A stretch of DNA of 64,000 nt from a virus: positions 1-64,000 of the IMG/VR virus record IMGVR_UViG_3300037010_002844. One strand, written 5' to 3'. The notes beneath the pieces are model-generated. The model was not told where the DNA came from. It did not search any database and saw nothing but the letters and a program-made list of their open reading frames with translations. Of the stretch, positions 17,688-60,785 are shown in pieces (positions within the stretch are counted from its first letter, which is position 1; the number at the start of each line of letters is the position of its first letter). Made by a program: the position numbers and the translations under genes.

Positions 17688-18176
17688 ATGCAGCCTAACA
17701 CGCGTAGGAGCATTGTGGACTTCGGACTGAACGTCGGTGACATCGTTACGTTTGCGTCTGAGAACGATAACACCGGTGGGTGTATCTATCAGATCGTCTT
17801 CGACCAGACGCCCATAGCGCCGCACACCACGCGGCGCACGACCACACGAACTCGAACAAAGTTCAACTGGCGGGACAATAGCAAATCTCAAGAAACTGAG
17901 ACGTACGAACACGTCGAACACGGCAGGTGGGACGAACAAGGTCGCAAGATCAAGCCTTGCGACGTCGCCGGCTACGTTCGTATCAAGCCGCTGTTCACCT
18001 TCTATCCGACGCCTCGAGGCAAGAAGCCCAAGGGAGCGGGTGAGACCATCATGGTCTACTACGGCCATGGTGTTTCACAGTTGAAGAAGGTCGAGGTTGC
18101 TGACCTGGGTGCCAAATACGTGGAACTGGGCGAACTGATGAAGTTCCTGCTCCGTAAGGGAGGCGCCGAACTGTGA
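17688..18176 (+). CDS. paralog-family protein A2 (162 aa)
   Basis: Paralog of 15769..16269. Confidence 0.5.
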   Translation: MQPNTRRSIVDFGLNVGDIVTFASENDNTGGCIYQIVFDQTPIAPHTTRRTTTRTRTKFNWRDNSKSQETETYEHVEHGRWDEQGRKIKPCDVAGYVRIKPLFTFYPTPRGKKPKGAGETIMVYYGHGVSQLKKVEVADLGAKYVELGELMKFLLRKGGAEL

Positions 18177-26370: not shown

Positions 26371-26616
26371 TCACTCTATGGACTCCAAATCCAAGGCAGC
26401 GATCCACCAGAGTGACCCTTCTAACAGGACCAATGATAGTTGTTCGCCGAGTTCATTGCAGCGATAGTGGTGAGCGATGAGCAGGCCGATCCCCTCGTGC
26501 CACATCTCGCAGTAGCCTCCCAGCTGTTCGATCAAGACTTGGCCTTTGGTCGCGACCAAATCACCAGGCAGGAGCGTCTGAGACATGACTGAGCTCGGAT
26601 GAAAAAAGTGGTCCAC
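26371..26616 (-). CDS. small SH3/KOW-like family protein
   Basis: LLPGDLVATKGQVLIEQ. Confidence 0.35.
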   Translation of the reverse strand: MDHFFHPSSVMSQTLLPGDLVATKGQVLIEQLGGYCEMWHEGIGLLIAHHYRCNELGEQLSLVLLEGSLWWIAALDLESIE

Positions 26617-26791
26617 TAATGCCGCTGCACGTCAAGACGTAGTAAACCCACGGGTAGCGGTCAGACCGTGCTGATCCCGCTGCCAGTGGGTCTCGGTTCG
26701 CCTTGGTGGCGCAGATGACCAGACCGAACTTGGGGCGCCCCGCGAACGGATCACAGATGACCAATTCGCCGATCAGGTGGCGAGGTGCCAT
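26561..26791 (-). CDS. small SH3/KOW-like family protein
   Basis: LIGELVICDPFAGRPKFGLVICAT. Confidence 0.35.
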   Translation of the reverse strand: MAPRHLIGELVICDPFAGRPKFGLVICATKANRDPLAAGSARSDRYPWVYYVLTCSGISGPLFSSELSHVSDAPAW

Positions 26792-27000
26792 CGACCCTCC
26801 ACCTGCTTAGCGTTGTGATCATTGACGACGAGGAGCGCATCGGCAAGGTGGACCTTGAAACCGACGCGATCATCCTCGTGCCACATCACAAGCCACTCGC
26901 CTTCCCTGATTTGACCGATAACCAGACCGAACTGTTGAGCGTCAACGCCCCAGCGTATCCTACGCACCACTAGCTCGCCCGATTGCAGGCCGCTACCCAC
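26773..27000 (-). CDS. small SH3/KOW-like family protein
   Basis: LQSGELVVRRIRWGVDAQQFGLVIGQI. Confidence 0.35.
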   Translation of the reverse strand: MGSGLQSGELVVRRIRWGVDAQQFGLVIGQIREGEWLVMWHEDDRVGFKVHLADALLVVNDHNAKQVEGRWHLAT

Positions 27001-27021: not shown

Positions 27022-27405
27022 TCAATGATCGTCTGCGGGCATGCGTTGCTTGAACGTCGTCACCATCTCCATTGTGTCCTTGACGGCCCGATCGTGCAAC
27101 AGCTTGGAACCCGAGCTCGCCAGCGCTGTGATTGCTGACATAAACAACTGCAGGCCCGCGGTGCAGACCAGGATAGTACCCGCGGCCACGTGGAATAGCG
27201 CTAGGACCAGCGCCAAGACCATGGTGAAGACCAGCATGGAAACTCGGCTGTTGCTGGCGCTAGCTGCGGTCACCCAGGCCATCGCTGCCTTCTCGAGGAC
27301 GATCATCTGCAACGTGAAGTTGATCTTCTGCTTGTCGCTGACCGTCTCCCAATCAACGTTTTCCAGCTTCTTCGCGAGTTGTTCCTTGGCCTCTTCCACC
27401 TTCAT
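27022..27405 (-). CDS. membrane protein translationally coupled to groEL (127 aa)
   Basis: Two predicted TM helices (AAMAWVTAASA..., VFTMVLALVLALFHVAAGTILVCTAGL) and an N-terminal coiled coil. Its ATG overlaps the groEL stop (ATGA). Confidence 0.45.
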   Translation of the reverse strand: MKVEEAKEQLAKKLENVDWETVSDKQKINFTLQMIVLEKAAMAWVTAASASNSRVSMLVFTMVLALVLALFHVAAGTILVCTAGLQLFMSAITALASSGSKLLHDRAVKDTMEMVTTFKQRMPADDH

Positions 27406-29009
27406 TCCTTCTTCTCCTCTTCCTCGACCACAACCGCATCGAGCGACAGGAACGTCACCGCGACGGAGACGGCGTTCTTCAGGGCGGTGCGAGTCACCTT
27501 GACGGGATCCACGACGCCAGCGGCGATTAGGTCCTCGTAGGTCTCCTTAGCTGCGTTGTAGCCCAGGGTGACGTCATTGAGGTGCAACTTGTGCAGCTCA
27601 TTGATGACCACGTCGGGAGAGACGCCCGCGTTGGTGACGATGCGCCGCAGGGGCGCAACACATGCAGCCTGCACCACCTTGGCACCGGCGCCGAACGTGG
27701 AGACTGGAATCTGCTGGCTCGCAGCCGCCAGTGCCATGCCGCCGCCGGGAACGATGCCCTCTTCTGCGGCAGCCTTCGTGGCATTGAGAGCGTCTTCAAT
27801 GCGGTACTTGCGTTCCACCATCTCGACTTCCGTCGCGCCACCGACGCGGATGATGGCGACGCCGCTCGCCAACTTGGCGATTCGCATCTTCAGCTTGGTG
27901 ACCTCATCCTGCGTCTTGGTGACGTCTTCCACCTGCGATCGCAGGTTGGCCACGTGAGCGTCGACCTCGGGCTTCGTGGTACCGGTGCCGACCAGCGTCG
28001 TGGACTTGGCGTCGACCGTGACACGCTTGATGGTGCCGAGGTCAGCCAACGTCAGTGTCTCGAGCTTCAATCCCTGCGATGCAGAGACGAGCTTTGCGCC
28101 CGTCAGGGTGGCGATGTCCTGCAGTAGCTCGTCGCGGTGCTGCCCATAGCCCGGTGCCTTAACGGCCACAATCGGCAGGTTGCCCTGGACACGGTTGAGA
28201 ACCAGGCCGTGCAGCGCCTCACCTTCCACGTCTTCTGCGATGATCAGCAGTGGCGTCCGCGTCTGGAGAACCTTCTCTAGGATTGGCACTAGGTCCTTCA
28301 ACACGCTGATCTTCTTGTCAGTGACCAGGACTCGGGCGCCCTCGTAGGTCGCCAACATCCTGTCGGGATTGGTGACGAAGTACGGCGATAGGTAGCCGCG
28401 GTCGAACTGCATACCTTCGACGACGTCGAGGCTGGTCGTCATGCCTTTGGCGTCCTCAACAGTGATAATACCGTCCTTACCGACCTTGCTCATGGCCTGA
28501 GCGATCAGTTGCCCGATTTTCTCGTCACCGTTCGCGGAGATAGTGCCAACCTGGGCGATCTCTTCCGCCGTCGTTAGCTGCTTCGCAGCGCGGATCAGCT
28601 CCTCATCGACAGTGGCCCGTGCCAGCTCGATGCCTTCACATAGTTCCTTCGCCGAGAAGCCAGCCTCCAGCAGTTTCAGGCCTTCCCTGACCATGGCGTG
28701 GGTCAACACCGTTGCTGTTGTCGTGCCGTCACCGGCGACCTCGTTGGTCTGCGATGCGGCCTCCCGGATCAGCTCTGCGCCCATCCTCGCGATGGGGTCC
28801 TTCAGCTTGACAGACTTGGAGACCGTGACGCCATCCTTGGTGACAACCGGCGCCTCGCCCTTGCGCTGGATCAGTACCGTTTTGCCCTTCGGGCCCAGCG
28901 TGCAGCTGACGGCCTCCGCGGCGATCTCGAGACCGTTGTAAAGCTTACGGCGGGCCTCGTCCTTGAAAACAACCTTGGTGACTGCGGGAGTGTCGACGTC
29001 TTGAAACAT
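27402..29009 (-). CDS. groEL: chaperonin GroEL (Cpn60), 535 aa
   Basis: Full-length match to GroEL (AAVEEGIVPGGG, DGTTTATVL). C-terminus lacks GGM repeats and ends EEEEKKE. Confidence 0.95.
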   Translation of the reverse strand: MFQDVDTPAVTKVVFKDEARRKLYNGLEIAAEAVSCTLGPKGKTVLIQRKGEAPVVTKDGVTVSKSVKLKDPIARMGAELIREAASQTNEVAGDGTTTATVLTHAMVREGLKLLEAGFSAKELCEGIELARATVDEELIRAAKQLTTAEEIAQVGTISANGDEKIGQLIAQAMSKVGKDGIITVEDAKGMTTSLDVVEGMQFDRGYLSPYFVTNPDRMLATYEGARVLVTDKKISVLKDLVPILEKVLQTRTPLLIIAEDVEGEALHGLVLNRVQGNLPIVAVKAPGYGQHRDELLQDIATLTGAKLVSASQGLKLETLTLADLGTIKRVTVDAKSTTLVGTGTTKPEVDAHVANLRSQVEDVTKTQDEVTKLKMRIAKLASGVAIIRVGGATEVEMVERKYRIEDALNATKAAAEEGIVPGGGMALAAASQQIPVSTFGAGAKVVQAACVAPLRRIVTNAGVSPDVVINELHKLHLNDVTLGYNAAKETYEDLIAAGVVDPVKVTRTALKNAVSVAVTFLSLDAVVVEEEEKKE

Positions 29010-29046
29010 ACAGCCATTCTACCGCGTGGGTAGGGCTCTGTACACA

Positions 29047-29328
29047 TCAACCGTCCTTTGTGACGGGCAACCAGACAGGCTGTCCCTTGCGCCAGGCGAT
29101 GGCGACGAGGCCCTTCTTGTAGTTGGTGATCAACTCCTTCAGGGTTGCCTTCTGTTGCGGGTCCTTGACTTTGTCGGCATAGCGGAGCAGCCGGTGTTCG
29201 GTGTAGTCAATCACCTTGTGCATGATCCCTGCAAAGATTGACTGCTGAGACTTGTGGAGGTGAAACTCCGTGCCTTCAACGTCCACCTTTGTGCCACCGG
29301 GATTACGAGTCGCCATGCTAGCATTCAT
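29047..29328 (-). CDS. small protein in the GroES position, not GroES-like by sequence (93 aa)
   Basis: Sits immediately upstream of groEL where groES normally lies, but shows no GroES signature. Confidence 0.35.
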   Translation of the reverse strand: MNASMATRNPGGTKVDVEGTEFHLHKSQQSIFAGIMHKVIDYTEHRLLRYADKVKDPQQKATLKELITNYKKGLVAIAWRKGQPVWLPVTKDG

Positions 29329-29778
29329 AATTACTTGTCACCTCCCTTTTTGTCTCGCGCTCAGTTTATCCACATTCGCAATGGCGATATTGTCGACTTC
29401 TATGAGTGCCCGTGTCCAGAGTGCACGAATATTCGCCTGTCCGTGATCCTCACGGTGTAGCTTATCACGCGCCCGTGTCGACGCAGGGCCTGAAATGCAA
29501 ATCAGCCCGGTGCCGAAAGACGGCACCGGGCTGATTGATTCGCAGACGACACTGCAAGACACAGTTACTTGTTCACCCTGTGTTGAGCGGGTTCTTGACC
29601 CTAGGCGTCGGCGGTGTGTGGCAAACATGACTTCTCGAGACCATCGTACATAAGTACGTGTCTACGAGACAACGCTTCGGCGGCATGAGCTTTTTCTGCA
29701 TGCCATGAAGGCGCCTCAAATGTTGCATTGTCCTGAACGGGGGCTTGCCATTGTGATCAGCGTGCACCTTGTCGAACT

Positions 29779-31164
29779 TCACTTTCGATCGAAAGAGCGC
29801 TCAACCTCTTCGACCTCATCGTGCGAGACCTTCACGATTTCGACATCCTTGTCGAGGTTGTAGTTGGGATCGGGCGGGTCGGTGTCAGGCCCGTCTTCCT
29901 CGTCATCCTCTTCAATTTCGACCTTCGTCATCTTGAGGTGCTTGCGGGTCAGGCGATGCATCCGCTCGACCTCATCGACATCCTTGTACTTCTCGAGACG
30001 CTTGACGCGGTCGGCCAACTCCTTGGTTGAGGCCTCGGCCTCTTCGGCGCTCATGAAACGTCGGCGCTTGACGTACTCCTGGATGAAGGCGATGGGCCAA
30101 TCCTTGACACTTTTCATGGCGTCCTTCAGTTCGGGACCCAGCACGGCCTCGATGACCTCAGGCTCCATCTCGTTGATCAACAACAGCTCATCGAAGCGAC
30201 CGGGGCGCAGAATCGCCTCGTCCAGCGAGTTGCGGTCGTTGACCGTCGCGATGACCAACTTCACGTGACGTTGGAAGAACTCCAGCGTCTCCAGGAGCTG
30301 CGCCTGAGCGTGAGCCCGATCGAAGTCATCCAAGATGATCGCGTCTGGTTCGAAGATGCTGATGGCCTCGAACAACGTCGAGCTCTCCAGGCCCGCCACA
30401 TCTTCCACGCGGATGCGGAAAGAGCGCATCTTCAGCTCGGTGACGATGGTTCGCGCCATCGTCGACTTGCCGGTTCCCGGCGGCCCGTACAACATGACAG
30501 ACCGCGAGACGTTGGCATCGATGCAGCGCTTCAGATAGGCCGCGTAGTTTGAGGCCCGCCTCGAGGGCATCGAGTGGAAAGCATCGTCCAATTCGAACAA
30601 CACTCGGGATTCATCGTCATGCAGCACCAGACGCTTGTTCTGGCGCATCACCAGGTTAGCGTCCTTGAACTGTTCCCAAAGCAGGCGCTTGATAACGTTG
30701 CGAGCGTCCTGCAACCGCGCGGTCTCGACGTAGATGTTGTCGATGGCCGACAACTTGGTGTTCATGATGTACCCACACTTGATGCCTTCGACATCGACGA
30801 TGCGGATGATGTTGTTCTCGTCTGACGTTCGAATTGTCTCATACGGATACCCGGTGATCACCTTGATGATCGTCTGGTTGAAGTCCCGCGAGTAGGGCAG
30901 GTTCCACTCGTCACCTGCGAAGTAGTCCTCGCTCCACAGCTCAACCTCGTCAACAAACACCTTGCCGATGGCGAAGGCAGCCTTGACGCCGTTCCACCAA
31001 TTGGGCTTCTCGAGGAAGGGCGCGACAGCGGTGAACACCTCGGTTCCCAAGGCGATCGTCTTCTTGACCTTGCTGATGTTGAACGCGGCCTTCAATTCCT
31101 CCACGAGCGTCCTTTCTTTCTCGAGGCTGGGATCACTCGCCGGGACACGGCTCTTCTTACGCAT
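29779..31164 (-). CDS. classical AAA+ ATPase with 200-aa N-terminal domain
   Basis: Walker A LYGPPGTGKST, Walker B IILDDFD, second region of homology ATVNDRNSLDEAILRPGRFD. Confidence 0.8.
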   Translation of the reverse strand: MRKKSRVPASDPSLEKERTLVEELKAAFNISKVKKTIALGTEVFTAVAPFLEKPNWWNGVKAAFAIGKVFVDEVELWSEDYFAGDEWNLPYSRDFNQTIIKVITGYPYETIRTSDENNIIRIVDVEGIKCGYIMNTKLSAIDNIYVETARLQDARNVIKRLLWEQFKDANLVMRQNKRLVLHDDESRVLFELDDAFHSMPSRRASNYAAYLKRCIDANVSRSVMLYGPPGTGKSTMARTIVTELKMRSFRIRVEDVAGLESSTLFEAISIFEPDAIILDDFDRAHAQAQLLETLEFFQRHVKLVIATVNDRNSLDEAILRPGRFDELLLINEMEPEVIEAVLGPELKDAMKSVKDWPIAFIQEYVKRRRFMSAEEAEASTKELADRVKRLEKYKDVDEVERMHRLTRKHLKMTKVEIEEDDEEDGPDTDPPDPNYNLDKDVEIVKVSHDEVEEVERSFDRK

Positions 31165-31681: not shown

Positions 31682-32596
31682 TCAGATCTTCAACTCCATC
31701 AAGCGCTTGCCCAAGTCCTGGAGGAAGGGCACACCATACTTCAAGTTGCCTTTCGCCTCGAGATCGTGGACCAAGAACTCAGGCAGCACTTCGTCCTGGT
31801 GACGGGCGCCCGCGATTCCCCATGCGATGGCCGCGACAGAGTCCGTGTCGCCGCCCCACTCGATGACCTGGTCCATGATCTCACGGAGAGAGCGCTTGTG
31901 AATCAACAAGGTGTTGACGGCCCAGGCCGTGTTGATGCCCACGTCGTACGGCGAGTGCTTGACATTGCCTTGAACCGGGCCCTCCCAAGGCACACGGAAT
32001 TTTTCGAACAAGGGTAAGCGGGGTTCCAACCACCCCTGCATTGCAGAAAGTTTGCGATGATCGTAGAGCGCGTAATGCGACATCAGGGCGATTGCCATCG
32101 CCGACTGCACGCCCTCGTAAGAGGCGTGCGTGGTGGTCGCCTGAAACGCTGCGACTGTCAGCAACTTGTCAACGTCTTTGATGACGCCCAAGGGCACGGC
32201 ACGCATGGCCGCGCCATTCTTCGTCGAATTGGGCCGCAATGTGGCGCGGAGCTCGTCAGCTGACTTCACCGACTCTAGGATCGCCTGGAACCCACGGGAA
32301 TACCCATCGCGTGGATCACGCTTGAAGGTGTCGAACCAGGCGGCGACCCAGTCGTTGTAGCTAGCGGACGTTCCCTTGTTGATCAGGGTCTCAGCCACCG
32401 CGATCGACATCTGCGTATCGTCAGTGTACATGCCAGGACGCAGGCCTTGGTGACCCGGGTGCTGCATGTAGCCCTGGAAGGCGCGGATTTCCTTGAACTC
32501 CGGCTCATCGGGATGGAACTTGATGTACTCGAACCCGGCAGCGTAGGCATCGCCCAAAGCGATGTGCAGCAGCATGTTGTCGTTGCGGTATCTCAT
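31682..32596 (-). CDS. ADP-ribosylglycohydrolase family protein
   Basis: MLLHIALGDAYAAGFEYIKF...MYTDDTQMSIAVAETL matches the DraG/ARH N-terminal signature. Start placed at the MRYRNDN internal Met, which is an assumption. Confidence 0.65.
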   Translation of the reverse strand: MRYRNDNMLLHIALGDAYAAGFEYIKFHPDEPEFKEIRAFQGYMQHPGHQGLRPGMYTDDTQMSIAVAETLINKGTSASYNDWVAAWFDTFKRDPRDGYSRGFQAILESVKSADELRATLRPNSTKNGAAMRAVPLGVIKDVDKLLTVAAFQATTTHASYEGVQSAMAIALMSHYALYDHRKLSAMQGWLEPRLPLFEKFRVPWEGPVQGNVKHSPYDVGINTAWAVNTLLIHKRSLREIMDQVIEWGGDTDSVAAIAWGIAGARHQDEVLPEFLVHDLEAKGNLKYGVPFLQDLGKRLMELKI

Positions 32597-32606
32597 GTTA
32601 TTTCTC

Positions 32607-32807
32607 TTATGAAAGCCACCAAATGACCAGCATCGTGAATGCGCAGATGATAGCAATGACCATCACGCCTGAATTGAACTTGCGCTGAAACTCTGCGTCG
32701 GCCTTGCGGTACGCCCGCTTCTGGTCTTTGTTGAGCGTCAGCCACCAACGATGAAATCGTTCGCGGCGTTGCCGATCCTTGCGGTTTCTGCGCATCCAGC
32801 CCAACAT
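32607..32807 (-). CDS. small basic tail-anchored membrane protein
   Basis: GGAGGTG RBS before MLGWMRRNRKDRQRRERF. C-terminal TM VMVIAIICAFTMLVIWWL. The longer ORF 32607..32990 is probably an upstream extension. Confidence 0.4.
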   Translation of the reverse strand: MLGWMRRNRKDRQRRERFHRWWLTLNKDQKRAYRKADAEFQRKFNSGVMVIAIICAFTMLVIWWLS

Positions 32808-35829: not shown

Positions 35830-36735
35830 TTAGGAACCCTTTCGGCCCGTCAGAAACATGAAGATCGCCCTGATGAATGCGAAGAACGTTGCCAAGAAAC
35901 CCGTCGGATTGCCAGGCACGATAGGTGCGGAAGGCACGGGCTTTGGAGGATCGGGAGACGGAGCGACTGGTTCAGGCGTGGGAGGCACGGGTTGTTCTTC
36001 CTGAGGAACTGGTGACGGAGGTGGCTCAGGTGCGGGCACCATGGGTACCGACTCTGGCTTCTTCAACTTGGACGCTTCGATCCAGTCGACCAGGTCGTTG
36101 GCTGCGCCCTGAGTAACATCGAGGTCAACGACGCTGCCGATGCCGTCGATTCGGAAGCCAGGCTTGCCGTCGGCCGCCACGTCTCCGCTCTTCTGCCAGA
36201 TGACCCAGCCTTTTGATTGCCAACACGGTGGAACCCACTTCGTTGGATCATTAACGTAGGCGGCCAACCAAAGATCGCGGGTGGCGAGGGCGGCCAGGGT
36301 CTCAGGTGCAGCACCCTTCATCTCTGCAATGATGATGGAGAGGCCCGTGTAGACGACCACGCGGCGCTCGAACAACTTTTCTAGATGTTCGATGCAGGCC
36401 AACACGTCCTTGGCATACTGGTCGCCTGTCTTGCTGGCGGGCCTCGTCTGCTCAACGTCGAGCATGGGAGGTAGGTCGCTGTCGTTGAGCGGGCCCACCG
36501 TCTTGAAGAAGTGTTCAGCCTGTATGATCGGATCAATCGAGGCGATGTAGAAGTGATACGCCCCACGCGGTAGACCCGCTTTGGGTAGCTCGGCCCAGTT
36601 ATATGCAAAGGAGGAATCGACGGTCTTATCACCGCCGCTCGCCTTTGCATATACGAAGTCAATCTTGCCCGTCGCCTTGACCTTTGCCCAGGCAGGCTTG
36701 CCTTGGGCGTAGGACACATCAATGCCTGTCGCCAT
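35830..36735 (-). CDS. GH25 lysozyme/endolysin with Pro-rich linker and C-terminal hydrophobic anchor
   Basis: GIDVSYAQGKPAWAKVKATGKIDFVYAKASGG...GAYHF is the GH25 signature. C-terminal PEPPPSPVPQEE linker plus TM-like tail FLATFFAFIRAIFMFL. Confidence 0.8.
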   Translation of the reverse strand: MATGIDVSYAQGKPAWAKVKATGKIDFVYAKASGGDKTVDSSFAYNWAELPKAGLPRGAYHFYIASIDPIIQAEHFFKTVGPLNDSDLPPMLDVEQTRPASKTGDQYAKDVLACIEHLEKLFERRVVVYTGLSIIIAEMKGAAPETLAALATRDLWLAAYVNDPTKWVPPCWQSKGWVIWQKSGDVAADGKPGFRIDGIGSVVDLDVTQGAANDLVDWIEASKLKKPESVPMVPAPEPPPSPVPQEEQPVPPTPEPVAPSPDPPKPVPSAPIVPGNPTGFLATFFAFIRAIFMFLTGRKGS

Positions 36736-38613: not shown

Positions 38614-39789
38614 TCAGCCCGAGCCACTGGTGGCGGCCAAGATGATGCCGAGCATCGACCAATCGATAAAGACTTTGCCGGCGACGAGGTCATCGAGGTC
38701 GTACACCTCCACGTAAGTCAACTCAGTATCGTTGGCGATCCCGTGAGTGACGCCGGAACTGTGTTCGTCCTCCAGGCGATTCATTTCAAGTGCTGTCAAC
38801 TCAACAGCGTAGACCACGCCATGATGGGTCGACAGGGCAGCACACATCTGCCGCGAGCCCACGTAACGTAGCCGCGTGGGATCAATATTGATGCCCATCT
38901 CTTCTTCCAACTCGTGGGCCGCCACCACGCGGGCATCCTGACTCAACTTCAGCGAACTACCACCAGGAGCCTCATATACGAAGCCTGCATTGTTGCGAAC
39001 AGAGCTGCGGAACTCCTTGACAAGGGCGACCCTCGTCCCAAGGACATCGGAGTCCGGCCTGTGATACGCCACCACGACGAAGACGTCCGGCCGCGAGAAG
39101 ATGAACTCGTTGGTCTTGTTGCGTTTCTCGGCCGCCACATAGACATCAACCTTCAAGGCATAGCAGAAGGTCACTGCTTTGTTGGGCCCAATGCGGAACG
39201 ACCACAGCAACTGTGCGCCGTCTAAACGATTACCAACAGCCCTCTGGGCCGCGTGCCACGAGCGGAACGCAGGCTGGTGCCAGATATGCAGTGGAACTGA
39301 ACGTTCCCCGCCGAATCGAAGTGCCTTGTGCTTCGTCCTCTCGAGTGCCTGCAGCAGCGTGTTCTGGAGCGTGCTCTCTACTGGGACGCCCTCGAGACGA
39401 GCACGGTGCGCCAGGTAGCGCATGTTATAGGCCTCGGGCGGGTAACCCAGGACCGTCTTTCCGGCATCATAGTACATACCGAACTCGACGTTCGTCGTCA
39501 GGGCAGGTGCCACCTGCATGTCGCGAGGAACCCAGAAGACGACCACGTCGCTCATGTCGAGGTGTTTCTTTTCCCATTCGACCTGATGATCGAAGCCGCA
39601 GTTCCACTTACCATCGCGGGGCAGCGGCACGAAGACGACGCCATCATAGCCCATCTCTTCGAGGAGCTTAAGGGCATCCGGTCGCCAATTCAAATGCGCA
39701 TCAGAACGGGGAGAAGGCCCCGCCAAAAAGATGGACTTCTCAAACGAAGCCGGCGCCTCTTCGGCTGCATAGACGATCTGCATGTTCAT
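38614..39789 (-). CDS. nucleoside 2-deoxyribosyltransferase-like (DRTase/Rcl-like) domain fused to Nudix hydrolase
   Basis: N-terminus SIFLAGPSP...DGVVFVP has a DRTase-like Rossmann signature. C-terminus carries the Nudix box GGSSLKLSQDARVVAAHELEEEMGI. Confidence 0.55.
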   Translation of the reverse strand: MNMQIVYAAEEAPASFEKSIFLAGPSPRSDAHLNWRPDALKLLEEMGYDGVVFVPLPRDGKWNCGFDHQVEWEKKHLDMSDVVVFWVPRDMQVAPALTTNVEFGMYYDAGKTVLGYPPEAYNMRYLAHRARLEGVPVESTLQNTLLQALERTKHKALRFGGERSVPLHIWHQPAFRSWHAAQRAVGNRLDGAQLLWSFRIGPNKAVTFCYALKVDVYVAAEKRNKTNEFIFSRPDVFVVVAYHRPDSDVLGTRVALVKEFRSSVRNNAGFVYEAPGGSSLKLSQDARVVAAHELEEEMGINIDPTRLRYVGSRQMCAALSTHHGVVYAVELTALEMNRLEDEHSSGVTHGIANDTELTYVEVYDLDDLVAGKVFIDWSMLGIILAATSGSG

Positions 39790-40800: not shown

Positions 40801-41385
40801 TCACAAGGTACCGCGGAATGTCCTGAAGGCCCTGTCACAGACGAAGGTGAAGATACCGAAGTTAGTCTGCATGTAGCAGTGGTGCACGTAGTGCAGTTCG
40901 TTCATGCGCTTGTATCCCGGCAAGACGCGGGCGAGCCAATGGTTACGCACGTGGAACGAATCGTGAATGTAGTCGTTCAAAAATCCAATCAGCAACGAGG
41001 CGCCCACCATCGCCAACGCAGTGGGCCAGGCCACCAGAGAAAGGAACGTGAGCGCCAGGGGCGCGAGCACGAGCGGGCTGCCCAAAACTAGGAACGGAAA
41101 GACCGTCGAATCCTTGCCGGGATCGCGGTAGACGTCCGACATGTAATCCTCGGGTGGATACAACTTGACGTGGTGCGTCATGTGCCCGCGGTAGAGCCTA
41201 CCCGACCAACGCTGGTGAATGGCCCAGTGAAGCACGTGACCGAACACCATCGTAACGAACATCATCAACGCAACAAAAAAGAACGTTAGCATCAGTTGAT
41301 CTATCCCTTCTTCTCGAGGTCTTCCTTCTCGAGTTGGGCCAAAGAAATGTTTCCCGTGTTCCAGGTGCAACCAGTGACCTTGCAA
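40801..41385 (-). CDS. fatty-acid hydroxylase/sterol desaturase-superfamily membrane protein
   Basis: His boxes HVLHWAIHQRW, HMTHHVKLY and HYVHHCY. Multiple TM segments. Confidence 0.5.
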   Translation of the reverse strand: MQGHWLHLEHGKHFFGPTREGRPREEGIDQLMLTFFFVALMMFVTMVFGHVLHWAIHQRWSGRLYRGHMTHHVKLYPPEDYMSDVYRDPGKDSTVFPFLVLGSPLVLAPLALTFLSLVAWPTALAMVGASLLIGFLNDYIHDSFHVRNHWLARVLPGYKRMNELHYVHHCYMQTNFGIFTFVCDRAFRTFRGTL

Positions 41386-53160: not shown

Positions 53161-53532
53161 TCAATCGGGCCGCATGGCGAGGTCCTTGTAGACGTCGTCA
53201 GCGTACTTAGCAAATTCCTTGTCGAGTTCTGTGACCTGCTCGATGTCCCTCGTCAGCAGCTCCACCTTCACGGTATCCTCATCTAGGGTCAACCGCGCGT
53301 GGTGTCCAACCTGTTCCTCGTATTCCATCAAGGCCAACACAAAGGGATTGCGATCAGACTGCCTGCGAAACTTATACGTCTTCGTCAGATGGGCTGGCGA
53401 GCCTTCCTTGACCCAACGATCCATCGGCACCACGGGCAGTTCAACCCTACGGGTATTGACGGGCAGGCGACCGAATTGCATCGGTCTTCGCGCCACGTTG
53501 ATGAACTCCTCGTGTAGGTCCGTCAACTTCAC
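53161..53532 (-). CDS. hypothetical protein (123 aa)
   Basis: ORF only. Confidence 0.35.
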   Translation of the reverse strand: MKLTDLHEEFINVARRPMQFGRLPVNTRRVELPVVPMDRWVKEGSPAHLTKTYKFRRQSDRNPFVLALMEYEEQVGHHARLTLDEDTVKVELLTRDIEQVTELDKEFAKYADDVYKDLAMRPD

Positions 53533-54296
53533 AGCAACACCACTCCACCGACGACGGCCGACTCTGTGAAGGAAGAGCCATTGGTCCAGATCCGACGATC
53601 GCGGTCAATGATGCAGGAACCGCCCTTCCACTTCAGGTCACGTTCTTCACCCACGCGGTTGCTGACGATCAAGTTGGCTCGAGTGTCCTCGACCAGCTCG
53701 ACCCAGGCCGAGTCAGGATAACCGAAGGCAGCGCCCCAGTTGGTCAACAGTGCAATGGTGTCGACTGAGCCTTTGGGATAGAACTTGTGACCGGGCTTGA
53801 AGAACTGGTACGATTCCCGGTACTTGTTCATGGCATCCCGACAGATCAGCACACCCAGGCGACCGACCGGAGTTACCAGGACCTCATGTTGAACATCTGA
53901 AGGCTGCGCCCAAAGATTGTCATTGCCCCATAGGTTGTGTTTCTGCGAATTTCCTACGAGGCCTCCAGGGCCCACGGTAGCCGCTGAGTTGTACAGCATG
54001 CCTTCGCGGAGCTCTGGATAACCGAAGACGATGTGACAGTTGAACCGTCGAGCGATCGGCAGGAACGCTTCTGTTTGGTACCCATCACGGGTCTGAGCGC
54101 ACTCCATCGCCTCGCGGGGATTGCGGAAGACATAGCCGGAGGTGCAGAGCTCGGGCAACACGATCACGCGAGCGCCCTTTGCAGCAGCCTCGAAGGCCAA
54201 CTGCTGCGCTGTCGCGAGGTTCTGCCTCACGTCGAACAGCTTAGGCTCGAACTGAACTGCTGCAACAATTACTGCGTTAGGTTGCCCGAAGTCCAT
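53529..54296 (-). CDS. carbon-nitrogen hydrolase (nitrilase superfamily)
   Basis: AVQFEP...RVIVLPELCTSGY...GVLICRDAMN has the CN-hydrolase Glu/Lys/Cys layout. Confidence 0.6.
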   Translation of the reverse strand: MDFGQPNAVIVAAVQFEPKLFDVRQNLATAQQLAFEAAAKGARVIVLPELCTSGYVFRNPREAMECAQTRDGYQTEAFLPIARRFNCHIVFGYPELREGMLYNSAATVGPGGLVGNSQKHNLWGNDNLWAQPSDVQHEVLVTPVGRLGVLICRDAMNKYRESYQFFKPGHKFYPKGSVDTIALLTNWGAAFGYPDSAWVELVEDTRANLIVSNRVGEERDLKWKGGSCIIDRDRRIWTNGSSFTESAVVGGVVLL

Positions 54297-57616: not shown

Positions 57617-58216
57617 TCATGCGGGAGCGCCTCCGGCACCACCCCCAGCTCGGGCGGCGGCGGGAGCCGGGAACTCATCGTCGGCTGCCTCTTCAGGCGA
57701 CTTACCGATCTCGATGCCGTGCTCAGAACGCAGGTTCTCCTTGAACGCCTCTACGACTTCTGGGGCATAGTTCTTGCCCAGGAAGTTGGCCGCTCGACGG
57801 AGCAATGTGTTGCGCAACTCCAACAGTGACGCGGCGTTGTCGATCAGGCGCATCACAGAATTGGCATAAGAGTCCATGTCGATGGAATCGACGCCGGGCT
57901 TCGAGGGCGCGTCGCTGCCTTCGTCGCCGAGGCCGAACTCATCATCGCCACCTTCATTGTCACCCTCGTCATCGCCGGCCTCGACAATGCGCCGGACCGC
58001 GCGACGCCAGTCCTTGCCTTCGGTCTTGGCGGACTTGGCTTCGCTCTCGTATTCTCCGAGGTAACGATCGATCTGCGCGTCGACAGAGTCCTCGCCGTCC
58101 TCACGCTCAGGTTCCTTACCGGCCGTGGGATCATTGCCGCCGGCCTCACGTAGAAATTCCTCGCGGAGGATTCGCTTCAGATCGCCGACCTTGATCCTGA
58201 TCTTTCTGTCCATCAC
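57617..58216 (-). CDS. N-terminal targeting-motif family protein, acidic (199 aa)
   Basis: MMDRKIRIKVGDLKRILREEFLREAGGNDPTAGKEPE, which is the motif followed by a linker. Confidence 0.45.
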   Translation of the reverse strand: MMDRKIRIKVGDLKRILREEFLREAGGNDPTAGKEPEREDGEDSVDAQIDRYLGEYESEAKSAKTEGKDWRRAVRRIVEAGDDEGDNEGGDDEFGLGDEGSDAPSKPGVDSIDMDSYANSVMRLIDNAASLLELRNTLLRRAANFLGKNYAPEVVEAFKENLRSEHGIEIGKSPEEAADDEFPAPAAARAGGGAGGAPA

Positions 58217-58923
58217 TTCACCGCCACTGCAATCGCCTCACCGCGCTTGAAGCGGTCTTCGATCACGGTCCAGTTGAACTCGCGCATCTGCGAGATGAGA
58301 TAGCTTTTCTTGTCGGACAGGTAGTCGCGGTAGTAGGCATGTTCATGCATGTCGACCACGATGATAGGGTACAACCCAACCATGACGTCCTGGCTGTGAT
58401 TGCTGATGATGACATTGACATAGCGCTTCAAGAAGGCGTGATAACCGCACACCACCCAACCGTTGCCCGCCGCCATGCCGCAGGCAATGAAGTCACGTTG
58501 CCAGTCCTCGAAGGTCCCGAAGTCACGCTGTAGCTTCAGGTACGAGATCGAATCCATCACGATCTCGCTGTGAGGATCGAAACAGTTGGCAAAGTACAAC
58601 TCGTGCAGCCAGACGGCATTGAGGTTGTATGCCTCGTCTAGCTTCAACGATCTGAAGTCGCTGTGCTTCGAATTGGCACCCGAACGATCTGCGGTGTCGA
58701 GCTCCGACGAGACCTGATTCACTTGCTCAATGTAGTCCTTGTAGAGGGCGGTGTGAGCGTCCTTGGTCTTCTGTGAGATGAGCTCGGAGACCTGTTTGAA
58801 GGGCTTCTGCTCGGCCACGTACGCTTCCTTGAGAGGCTCGCGTGCCGCGCCCATCGTCTCCTTCACGGACTTCCTTAGAAGGCCGTCGACGTCGAGGCCC
58901 GTGTCTTTGTCAGTCAAGCTCAT
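58213..58923 (-). CDS. Fe/Mn superoxide dismutase family protein with about 70-aa N-terminal extension
   Basis: NAVWLHELYFANC (WNHTFYWNC), FGTFEDWQ...GNGWVV (FGSFADF...GSGWTWL) and DMHEHAYYRDYLSDKKSYL (DVWEHAYYIDYRNARPGYL). Metal-ligand His/Asp positions are conserved. Confidence 0.75.
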   Translation of the reverse strand: MSLTDKDTGLDVDGLLRKSVKETMGAAREPLKEAYVAEQKPFKQVSELISQKTKDAHTALYKDYIEQVNQVSSELDTADRSGANSKHSDFRSLKLDEAYNLNAVWLHELYFANCFDPHSEIVMDSISYLKLQRDFGTFEDWQRDFIACGMAAGNGWVVCGYHAFLKRYVNVIISNHSQDVMVGLYPIIVVDMHEHAYYRDYLSDKKSYLISQMREFNWTVIEDRFKRGEAIAVAVK

Positions 58924-59454
58924 ATTCTTGCTCCAAGGTTGTAGCGTCAACAAGGAAGGTCTCACCTTCCGGCGTTCGGAGAATGCAATCGCGGGGCCCG
59001 ACGGAGTCAACCGTGTAGCGGATGCCGCTCTTCTTGTGCAGTACCTTTAGCTCGGGAGAGATGACGATCTTCTCATCACCTTTGCCCAGTTTCGCCGTCA
59101 GTGCGACGTCGATGGTCTCAGCGAGTTGATTGACCTTGTTATCCCATTCCTCACGCATAATGCGAAGGACATCAGCCTCAGTCAGTGTCTTCATCGGGCC
59201 CTGGCGGTAAGTATTCTCTCCAGCTTGAGACGCAGGTCATCACGATTGGCTTTCGTTCTTCCATGTACAACTATCGATAGAGTCATGTTTTGAGCGGTAA
59301 ACCACTCATCCTTTGCACGATCTGAAAGCCAGTTGCGATAGATTCCTTTGTCACGTGGATTTGTGATGCCATCATGACGTCGATGGAGCGGTCAAGACCG
59401 TGCCAATATTCGCTGTCGTACTGAATGTACGTATTGATGCTTTTGACGTAAAAG

Positions 59455-59913
59455 TCAACGGGCCAATCTTGAGTTGATAATCGCATCCTCTAGCGATAGC
59501 ACTTCAATACCGACGGACCGCAGGAGATTTAGCCCTGCCGGATCGCGGTAGGGAATCTCATAAACAACTCGGGCAATCTCAGCATTGATGATCAACTTGG
59601 CGCAGTCCTTGCACGGGCTGTGAGTCACGTACAGGTGTTTCTTCTTGGGAAAGTTGAAGTCACACTTGACCAGCGCATTGACCTCGGCGTGAATAAAGCC
59701 TGACTTGCCAGGTTCCTTCGACTCGTGCTCGTGTGGCCCGCCTTTGTAGTTGCCGTTGTACCCGATCGACAACATCTGGGTATTGTCGTATGAGACGACG
59801 ATGGCGCCCACCTTTAGCCTGGGATCGTAAGAACGCAAGGCAATCGTCTTGGCGACTGCCATCCAGATCGAAGGCCAGGTGGGCCGCAGTTCTTCGCTAT
59901 TGTGGGTCATCAC
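59455..59913 (-). CDS. dCMP (deoxycytidylate) deaminase
   Basis: HAEVNALVKC...HSPCKDCAKLI are the zinc-binding H(A)E and PCxxC motifs of the CDA fold. Confidence 0.85.
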   Translation of the reverse strand: MMTHNSEELRPTWPSIWMAVAKTIALRSYDPRLKVGAIVVSYDNTQMLSIGYNGNYKGGPHEHESKEPGKSGFIHAEVNALVKCDFNFPKKKHLYVTHSPCKDCAKLIINAEIARVVYEIPYRDPAGLNLLRSVGIEVLSLEDAIINSRLAR

Positions 59914-60785
59914 AGTAACTCCTTGAAGAGCTCCGTCTCACGGCGCTCCATCTCCTTGCCCAACTGAGCGCCCGTGAATCCTTGTGCCATTAGCTCATCA
60001 CCTGTGATGGTGGGCCTGTACTTCAGGAAGGCTCGAACCAAGCGCGGTTCAGGCGTGCTCTTCATTGCAGCGAACTCAATCAAGTCCTTGTCCGACAGCT
60101 TGCTGATCAGGTAAGCCTTGCGTAGCCTGAAGGCATTCTCGGGAGTCAAGTCCTTGAATCGCAGGAGAAACGTCACCTGCGCTACCTCGTCGGCAGAGTA
60201 CTTCAACGCATTAAGGCGCTTTGCCACAAGATCGGGAGCGTTACCCCACAACAATCGGGCGAGAACCACCGGCACGTTCTTCGTGTCGATCGGAACCCGC
60301 GCAACGTTAAGACCCGGGAACACCTGTGGCCAGAGGTCGTACTCCTCCATCATGTCAAGGAACGACGGCACAGATCGGGTCGCTAGAATGCCCTTCAAAA
60401 ACTCGTCTCTAATTCGTTCAGGGGAAACCCCGCTCAACTTATTGTCATTTTTGATGGCCTGAGCCGTCGCAGGGTCAAGTTGTGACCCCATGCGTGTCGC
60501 AAATCGCAGGGCCCGCAGGATGCGCAACCTGTCTTCTGCAAATCGCGCACCTGGGTCTCCAACTGCCTTGACGATCCCGTTCTGGATGTCGTCGATTCCG
60601 CCGACGAAGTCGACGATCTCCCCTTTGTCGATGTCGTAGAACAAGGCGTTGATCGTCAGATCGCGGCGCTGCACGTCCGAAGCAATGTCAGTGAACTCGA
60701 CCGCGTCGGGCCGACGACCATTAAGTCTTTCAAATTGCTTGAATTCTTCAGGAAATATTTCCTTTGCTATCTTTTGCCACGTCAT
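59910..60785 (-). CDS. cca: CCA-adding tRNA nucleotidyltransferase, body/C-terminal part (exon 2 or split product)
   Basis: RRPDAVEFTDIASDVQRRDLTINALFYD...EDRLRILRALRFA are PolyA_pol-family motifs downstream of the head domain. Confidence 0.7.
   Translation of the reverse strand: MTWQKIAKEIFPEEFKQFERLNGRRPDAVEFTDIASDVQRRDLTINALFYDIDKGEIVDFVGGIDDIQNGIVKAVGDPGARFAEDRLRILRALRFATRMGSQLDPATAQAIKNDNKLSGVSPERIRDEFLKGILATRSVPSFLDMMEEYDLWPQVFPGLNVARVPIDTKNVPVVLARLLWGNAPDLVAKRLNALKYSADEVAQVTFLLRFKDLTPENAFRLRKAYLISKLSDKDLIEFAAMKSTPEPRLVRAFLKYRPTITGDELMAQGFTGAQLGKEMERRETELFKELL

Follow-up and report, generated by a model that had tools for sequence, protein, structure and literature searches.

A complete groEL gene lies in a 64,000-nucleotide (nt) stretch of viral DNA (IMG/VR record IMGVR_UViG_3300037010_002844, positions 1 to 64,000; hereafter the window), and the slot that would be expected to hold groES is taken by a gene encoding a 93-residue protein, p93. 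The p93-GroEL pair is kept in every related locus examined, and the genes on either side of it vary. p93 is proposed, at roughly even odds, to be a dedicated partner of the phage GroEL that acts as a modulator or adaptor rather than as a GroES-type lid. On the minus strand the gene order is AAA+ ATPase, structured spacer, p93, GroEL and p127, a small membrane protein whose start codon overlaps the GroEL stop codon. The features of the cassette are as follows, with the open reading frame (ORF) calls and AlphaFold2 (AF2) models on which they are based.

29047-29328, minus strand: p93, 93-amino acid (aa) ORF in the groES slot (ORF call, 50 homologues, AF2 model)
29341-29345, minus strand: GGAGG Shine-Dalgarno sequence of p93, 12 nt upstream of the first ATG (...AAAAAGGGAGGTGACAAGTAATT-ATG)
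27402-29009, minus strand: GroEL, complete group I chaperonin, 535 aa (Pfam, PHROG, NCBIfam)
27022-27405, minus strand: p127, 127-aa protein with two transmembrane (TM) helices (ORF, junction, hydropathy, AF2 model)

Linkage of p93 and GroEL and absence of groES

Loci were collected from p93 homologues in two sets, the first comprising 30 loci (metagenome look-ups and IMG/VR) and the second 81 further loci (JGI metagenomes and a single metagenome-assembled genome, MAG), 74 of which have at least 400 nt of downstream sequence. GroEL is the next gene after p93, on the same strand, in 30/30 loci of the first set, and it is again the next gene in 74/74 loci of the second, at a median gap of 41 nt (range 19-339 nt). 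The original prediction that an unrelated 93-aa ORF occupies the groES slot thus extends from the window to 104/104 related loci, a count that includes a few contigs twice, by different routes, and so slightly exceeds that of distinct contigs. Since the arrangement recurs in every related locus examined, it lies far beyond chance. The converse look-up began from three GroEL proteins of the same clade with DNA sequence, picked only for lying on long contigs; a p93-family gene was found 35-45 nt upstream in 3/3 (E 1e-35 to 2e-52). A fourth GroEL, looked up without DNA, has small ORFs at the place of p93.

A GroES hidden Markov model (HMM) was trained on 63 GroES genes adjoining GroEL on other viral contigs. 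It detected no groES in the six-frame translation of the whole 64-kb window (best E 2.2) and none in the flanks of the p93 loci (0/32, 0/81 and 0/2 in three sets). On other viral contigs that carry GroEL, groES lies nearby in 62/78 and 35/78 loci (two sets) and p93 in none. p93 and groES are mutually exclusive among the loci examined. A 33-aa tblastn match to a Cpn10 sequence in the ORF at 17688-18176 (E 0.002) was dismissed as chance, as Pfam and the GroES HMM were both silent there. No site in the window comes within 3 mismatches of the CIRCE heat-shock operator.

The surroundings of the pair are variable: 19/30 loci have an AAA gene and about half have p127, and the AAA gene can be separated from p93 by inserted genes. 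Because the flanks vary on both sides, the p93-GroEL pair is the invariant core of an otherwise reshuffled region, and its retention amid such reshuffling argues for functional coupling of the two proteins, short of proving it. The lineage appears to have lost groES once, early, and GroEL has since been inherited as a tight pair with p93.

Another group of groES-less viral GroEL loci (L205, L211, L215, L220, L233, L234) has its own recurring upstream gene, which encodes 150-195 aa with an IGQ[IV]IYVLS-like motif at the N-terminus. The p93 clade may thus not be the only one with a partner of its own in the groES slot.

The p93 family and its predicted fold

p93 has a mass of 10.5 kDa and an isoelectric point (pI) of 9.7, and its stop codon is separated from GroEL by 37 nt; size and position are those of a Cpn10, and the former agrees with the earlier remark that a 93-aa product would fit a co-chaperonin analogue. 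An alternative start at M5 is possible and would give 89 aa. A word-based search returned 50 homologues of 84-132 aa, and a profile search of 1.84 billion cluster representatives expanded the family to 248 clusters at 50% identity with E ≤ 0.001 (132 at E ≤ 1e-10). Nearly all members are stand-alone proteins of 60-135 aa. The alignment has a mean identity of 45% and 13 invariant residues (T20, H25, D41, T43, E44, D56, Q58, Q59, Y70, G73, A76, W79, G82); invariance of this extent at such an identity indicates that p93 is under purifying selection. As judged from these sequences, p93 represents a real family and not a spurious ORF.

No match to p93 was found in Pfam, PHROG, NCBIfam or the PDB sequences, and a set of 50,697 deposited phage genomes contains no relative either. 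A set of 185,579 species-representative prokaryotic genomes yields 1 match, which lies on an 89-kb MAG contig. p93 is confined to phage-like contigs. Two public p93-GroEL records carry bacterial MAG labels, namely P0170 (L112/L113; Caulobacteraceae) and L114 (Bdellovibrionota). The P0170 loci consist mostly of small ORFs without a family match and the L114 record is an 89-kb contig; both are probably phage contigs that were binned into MAGs.

The AF2 model computed from the family alignment is moderately confident, with a predicted local distance difference test (pLDDT) score of 81, and has an α+β fold. A disordered N-terminus of ~20 residues, which contains the conserved sequence MATRNP (pLDDT < 60), is followed by short turns, two helices (residues 42-53 and 57-71) and a C-terminal β-hairpin (75-88). 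After the N-terminal segment there is a conserved T-x-F-x-L-H-K-S-Q motif that includes a hydrophobic triplet. The family is basic, with a median pI of 9.6, 89% of members above 8 and a median net charge of +5. In contrast, a comparison set of 64 GroES proteins has a median pI of 5.1 and no member above 8.

p93 was also compared directly with the Cpn10 family. There is no Pfam match, the GroES HMM gives E 7.6, and hhalign assigns a probability of 0.15% to the alignment of the p93 and GroES families. Neither a β-barrel nor a mobile loop (a Gly and a hydrophobic triplet with flexible residues on both sides) was found in the p93 sequence or AF2 model. The lack of a GroES-like mobile loop had been noticed from the sequence beforehand. 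The GroES- or gp31-like barrel that had been entertained for the protein did not appear; helices and a β-hairpin were predicted in its stead, with no structural or profile similarity to GroES. A structural analogue of GroES or gp31 is ruled out by sequence, profile, charge and predicted fold.

The GroEL protein

The phage gene is complete and well conserved, as originally described. The 535-aa product exceeds the curated cut-off of the NCBIfam GroEL equivalog TIGR02348 (639.6 bits, cut-off 582.1) and that of NF000592 (652, cut-off 397), and it matches Pfam Cpn60_TCP1 (PF00118) at 2.8e-69 and the PHROG family 'chaperonin groEL' at 6.7e-149. In the PDB it comes closest to bacterial GroELs (480-535 bits), and the 60 best matches include no chain named as a phage chaperonin. 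The identity to the enterobacterial GroEL of Salmonella is 48%. By these matches the protein classifies as a bona fide group I chaperonin.

Alignment to Salmonella GroEL shows that the ATP/Mg site is unchanged in the window and in 20/20 clade sequences (GDGTTT at 86-91, D52, D398, G415/G416 and D495); T30-P33 and K51 are likewise kept. In the apical groove, which binds substrate and the GroES mobile loop, 7/9 residues are identical (Y199, S201, Y203, F204, L237, L259, V263) and the two changes, L234→V and V264→L, are conservative, a pattern that holds across the 20 clade members. As both the ATPase site and the apical hydrophobic groove are intact, the phage GroEL is probably active.

Residues at the inter-ring contacts are changed, which predicts altered contacts between the rings. 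Unlike bacterial GroEL, the window protein has Ser in place of E461 and the clade is variable at R452; S463 is replaced by D or E (D in the window) and V464 is kept. F44 is replaced by G in the window and by G, N or D across the clade, and clade-specific substitutions include K4→T, E59→S and T261→G, the last of these in the apical domain. The C-terminus reads ...VVVEEEEKKE and has no GGM repeat. This ending, which the original prediction had pointed out, proved to be a trait of the clade, the tails of which are short, acidic or neutral, and devoid of GGM (44/44).

GroEL phylogeny

A neighbour-joining tree was calculated from 87 GroELs, comprising 20 p93-linked sequences, 66 from other viral contigs and that of Salmonella. 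The p93-linked GroELs are monophyletic with a bootstrap value of 100/100, or 96/100 when the deepest member, L030, is left out. Clade members are 60-72% identical to the window GroEL, apart from L030 at 42%, and all other sequences 47-51%. An exact look-up of the window GroEL matched no record. The 120 best matches listed from a collection of 5.8 billion proteins are all 65-76% identical to it, and a 96-aa gene precedes GroEL in the one 'Caulobacteraceae' MAG match that was looked up. Clustering with a host copy, which would have spoken for recent capture, was not seen. Because the p93-linked proteins form one phage-only clade at most 51% identical to other GroELs, the phylogeny indicates an old, virus-specific lineage and not a recent acquisition from a host.

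The membrane protein p127 and the genes downstream

The p127 ATG overlaps the GroEL TGA as ATGA at 27402-27405 (GGAATGAAGG). This overlap of a two-TM protein with the groEL stop codon had been recognized in the window from the outset and recurs in roughly one half of the clade. The codons of the acidic GroEL tail (GAGGAAGAGGAGAAGAAGGAA) double, in the window, as the purine-rich ribosome-binding region of p127. Some 43 residues of the protein (about 55-97) form a hydrophobic stretch (Kyte-Doolittle values up to 2.55), which an AF2 model made from the single sequence splits into two helices, 53-73 and 79-96, a likely membrane hairpin; the model is helical throughout (pLDDT 71).

A word-based search with p127 matched only p127 itself, in an identical copy on a 309,481-bp JGI contig. 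A jackhmmer search of the fetched loci identified homologues directly after GroEL in 9 distinct loci; these have in common an [IV]DW motif in the N-terminal part and, after it, two hydrophobic helices. The two genes overlap in 9/9 junctions inspected, with an in-frame ATG 4-14 nt ahead of the GroEL end. With a family HMM, a p127-family ORF was found at the GroEL end in 24/54 further loci, as well as in 3/3 of the GroEL-first look-ups, which gives an overall frequency of ~45-50%. p127 is a real, fast-evolving and optional third member of the cassette and, as read from the junctions, is translationally coupled to the GroEL stop codon where present. A role as class II holin finds no support: the two TM helices are present, but the endolysin gene (35830-36735) is ~8 kb away and the homologues always lie at the GroEL 3' end.

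Runs of small ORFs (~60-95 aa), >30 in a row in one relative, follow the cassette, for example at 26371-27000 (minus strand) in the window and at 400-8300 in L112. Those of the window match ORFs located right after GroEL in L012, L014-L016, L020 and L021, where they replace p127 in loci lacking it. The ORFs in the place of p127 are ~70 aa long and paralogous. Genes for proteins like the translation initiation factor IF1/eIF-1A lie within ~0.2-1.3 kb downstream of GroEL in L112 (12577-12882), L276 (4479-4638), L025 (8036-8332) and L030 (7952-8197).

Proposed role of p93 and alternative explanations

We consider it about as probable as not (approximately 0.5) that the phage GroEL has in p93 a dedicated partner, a modulator or adaptor distinct from a GroES-type lid, and that the lid, if one is needed, may come from the host. 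p93 might tune the ATPase or conformational cycle of GroEL, provide specificity for phage clients, or tell phage rings from host rings; as an adaptor it would serve substrate or localisation. A modulator or adaptor is favoured over a lid because p93 lacks every structural hallmark of the latter. Host GroES may well supply the lid, since the groove that binds its mobile loop is conserved in the phage GroEL. p127 would be either a stoichiometric client or a membrane tether of the chaperonin. It is the genomic context that suggests an action of p93 on GroEL.

Several considerations weigh against this proposal. p93 has no recognizable chaperone-related fold or motif, and its basic charge also fits a nucleic-acid-binding protein. 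In a single viral lineage, adjacency can be conserved in part through common descent and not function. Since about half of the clade lacks p127, this protein cannot be essential to the chaperonin. Finally, the search for groES covered 64 kb of a ~309-kb genome and flanks of 4-10 kb, and a distant groES elsewhere is possible.

A contrasting explanation is that p93 is a lid-forming co-chaperonin of a new fold, which would oligomerize on the GroEL ring, dock via its flexible N-terminus and close the chamber, in a gp31-like role of independent origin. p93 does share the size class and operon slot of groES and is strictly exclusive with it. Its conserved disordered N-terminus (MATRNP..., pLDDT < 60), with the T-x-F-x-L-H-K-S-Q motif and its hydrophobic triplet just behind, could be imagined to dock on an apical groove that is itself conserved, and one clade-specific change, T261→G, falls in the apical domain. 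This explanation is nevertheless improbable, given that no β-barrel is predicted, that structural or profile likeness to GroES is lacking, that p93 is basic where GroES is acidic (pI 9.6 versus 5.1), that there is no Gly and hydrophobic-triplet loop flanked by flexible residues on both sides, and that a helix-helix-hairpin domain of ~70 residues offers no obvious dome. Equally doubtful is a broader form of the proposal, in which p93 would define a structurally new co-chaperonin class (a basic, non-Cpn10 helix-helix-hairpin protein) that replaced GroES and caps or gates GroEL in widespread huge freshwater and soil phages, with p127 as the membrane tether.

The possibility that p93 has no part in the chaperonin cycle merits somewhat more weight, although we regard it as unlikely too. 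p93 would then be a basic nucleic-acid-binding or regulatory passenger, and GroEL would use host GroES or no lid. Such a view accords with the conserved GroES-contact residues of the phage GroEL, with the basic character of p93 (median net charge +5), with the frequency of GroEL-only viral contigs, the upstream genes of which are heterogeneous, and with Marine et al. 2017 (PMC5649160), who propose a host co-chaperonin or independence for a viral 'GroEL' clade without groES. A gap of ~40 nt to GroEL, kept in >100 loci despite reshuffled flanks, is not what one would expect of a passenger, nor is persistence down to a GroEL identity of 42% (L030). The invariant D41, T43, E44, D56, Q58 and Q59 are acidic or polar, which is atypical of a nucleic-acid-binding surface, and no helix-turn-helix or other DNA-binding fold was detected in p93. 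It is also conceivable, though very unlikely, that GroEL is needed for the folding or insertion of p93, of p127 or of both, which would then be privileged clients or assembly factors. The translational coupling of p127, a hydrophobic helical hairpin, to GroEL is conserved, and the GroEL of E. coli reportedly solubilises small membrane proteins, the lambda holin among them, and delivers them. However, p127 is absent from approximately half of the clade and is not next to the endolysin gene (35830-36735), which leaves a holin role unsupported, and p93, being small, soluble and partly disordered, is an unlikely obligate GroEL client.

Comparison with known chaperonin systems

What defines a group I chaperonin is that it depends on a Cpn10 lid. 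The phage cassette resembles the bacterial groES-groEL operon in having a full-length group I GroEL with a ~10-kDa gene directly upstream in the same orientation. It differs from that operon in that the upstream gene is not Cpn10, CIRCE and the GGM tail are missing, and a membrane-protein gene overlaps the 3' end.

T4 gp31 is a structural homologue of GroES, with a β-barrel and a mobile loop, and works with the host GroEL. p93 is reminiscent of gp31, the precedent invoked in the original prediction, and of RB49 CocO as a small phage protein in the functional neighbourhood of GroES. Unlike gp31, it is without such a predicted fold and accompanies a GroEL encoded by the phage itself.

The closest functional analogy to p93 as a modulator may be the product of T4 gene 39.2 (NwgI), a small phage ORFan reported to modulate GroEL according to the title of Ang and Georgopoulos 2012, as cited in PMC5649160. 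By that title, NwgI would resemble p93 in being small and unrelated to GroES. Unlike p93, NwgI acts on host GroEL and is not known to be encoded beside a chaperonin gene.

The chaperonins of phages phiEL (gp146), OBP and AR9 are, like the window GroEL, phage-encoded members of the Cpn60 family without a phage groES. phiEL gp146 has 22% identity to GroEL and does not interact with GroES (PMC7185714), and Bracher et al. 2020 state that an unrelated co-factor for this chaperonin 'cannot be ruled out' (PMC7185714). The kinship with co-chaperonin-independent phage chaperonins that had been contemplated for the window GroEL did not emerge, its identity to the enterobacterial protein being 48% as against 22% for phiEL gp146. 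This identity to Salmonella GroEL and the bacterial GroELs among its PDB matches clearly set it apart from the phiEL type.

Marine et al. 2017 (ISME J, PMC5649160) describe phage group I GroELs on contigs without groES, which are separate from the viral clades with the orders GroES>GroEL and GroEL>GroES and form a clade of their own; for this GroEL-only clade they propose either that the host provides GroES or that no co-chaperonin is required. The p93-linked GroELs are similar in being phage proteins without groES, a likeness by description only. They differ in having an invariant partner gene, whereas the passages of that study that were consulted do not mention a conserved small upstream protein (PMC5649160).

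Phage GroEL without groES is already known, both from phiEL and from the clade of Marine et al. 2017 (PMC5649160). Two features appear to be undescribed in the literature searched: a small protein other than Cpn10 that invariably fills the groES slot of a conventional GroEL, at >100 loci, and a membrane protein recurrently coupled to the GroEL stop codon. For the question of how groES-less phage GroELs work, the p93 lineage offers a concrete candidate cofactor. The proposal is directly testable, as it involves three small genes that can be synthesised. If p93 does bind GroEL, it would be a novel chaperonin modulator or a co-chaperonin of a new type, and a family of ~250 clusters would gain a function. 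If it does not, the locus still presents a clean virus-specific GroEL lineage and a membrane protein translationally coupled to a chaperonin.

The region upstream of p93

Three features were located upstream of p93, the hairpin among them by its minimum free energy fold.

29779-31164, minus strand: classic-clade AAA+ ATPase, 461 aa (Pfam AAA, 1e-16; AAA domain most like FtsH, PAN and CDC48 by partial NCBIfam matches)
29500-29536, minus strand: perfect 16-bp hairpin with a 5-nt loop, followed by a U-rich run (100% complementary inverted repeat, minimum free energy fold)
29389-29418, minus strand: sigma-70-like promoter candidate TGGACA-18-GACAAT (9/12 positions), between the terminator and p93

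The N-terminal half of the AAA gene product (~200 aa) has no family match. A homologue is found within 6-8 kb upstream in 19/30 loci, with variable genes inserted before p93, and the AAA protein and GroEL may constitute a proteostasis module. The 450-nt spacer between the AAA gene and p93 (29329-29778, minus strand) folds unusually well (z = -3.4). Its hairpin is likely an intrinsic terminator that parts the AAA gene from the p93-GroEL-p127 unit; the spacer may hold no more than this terminator, or else encode a small RNA. A match to the Rfam family of Pxr small RNAs in the spacer (34 bits versus a gathering score of 80, E 0.0026) stems largely from the terminator hairpin and was not accepted as a Pxr gene. 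The weak match at 29389-29418 could be a promoter of the cassette; it is a candidate only, as the 4 such sites in the region are not clearly above shuffled sequences (1.8 ± 1.2).

The phage genome and its auxiliary genes

The cassette is carried by an apparent huge, uncultured phage. No GenBank phage shares DNA with the window; its relatives, viral contigs in IMG/VR, reach 340 kb, and the 309,481-bp JGI metagenome contig encodes a p93 and a p127 that are each 100% identical to those of the window. The majority of window ORFs belong to no family, and those that do include an endolysin, an exonuclease, thymidine kinase, NUDIX, Fe/Mn superoxide dismutase, CCA/poly(A) polymerase and a major-vault-protein homologue. 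Auxiliary genes are abundant.

58213-59010: Fe/Mn superoxide dismutase, C-terminal domain
53529-54296: carbon-nitrogen hydrolase
40801-41385: fatty-acid hydroxylase
59910-60785: CCA-adding/poly(A) polymerase
38614-39789: nucleoside 2-deoxyribosyltransferase-like protein
31682-32656: ADP-ribosylglycohydrolase
11150-13729, plus strand: homologue of the eukaryotic major vault protein, 859 aa

The vault homologue matches Pfam MVP_shoulder (3.1e-28), Vault repeat domains and Band_7/SPFH, and a further homologue is encoded on the related contig L006 (18166-20258).

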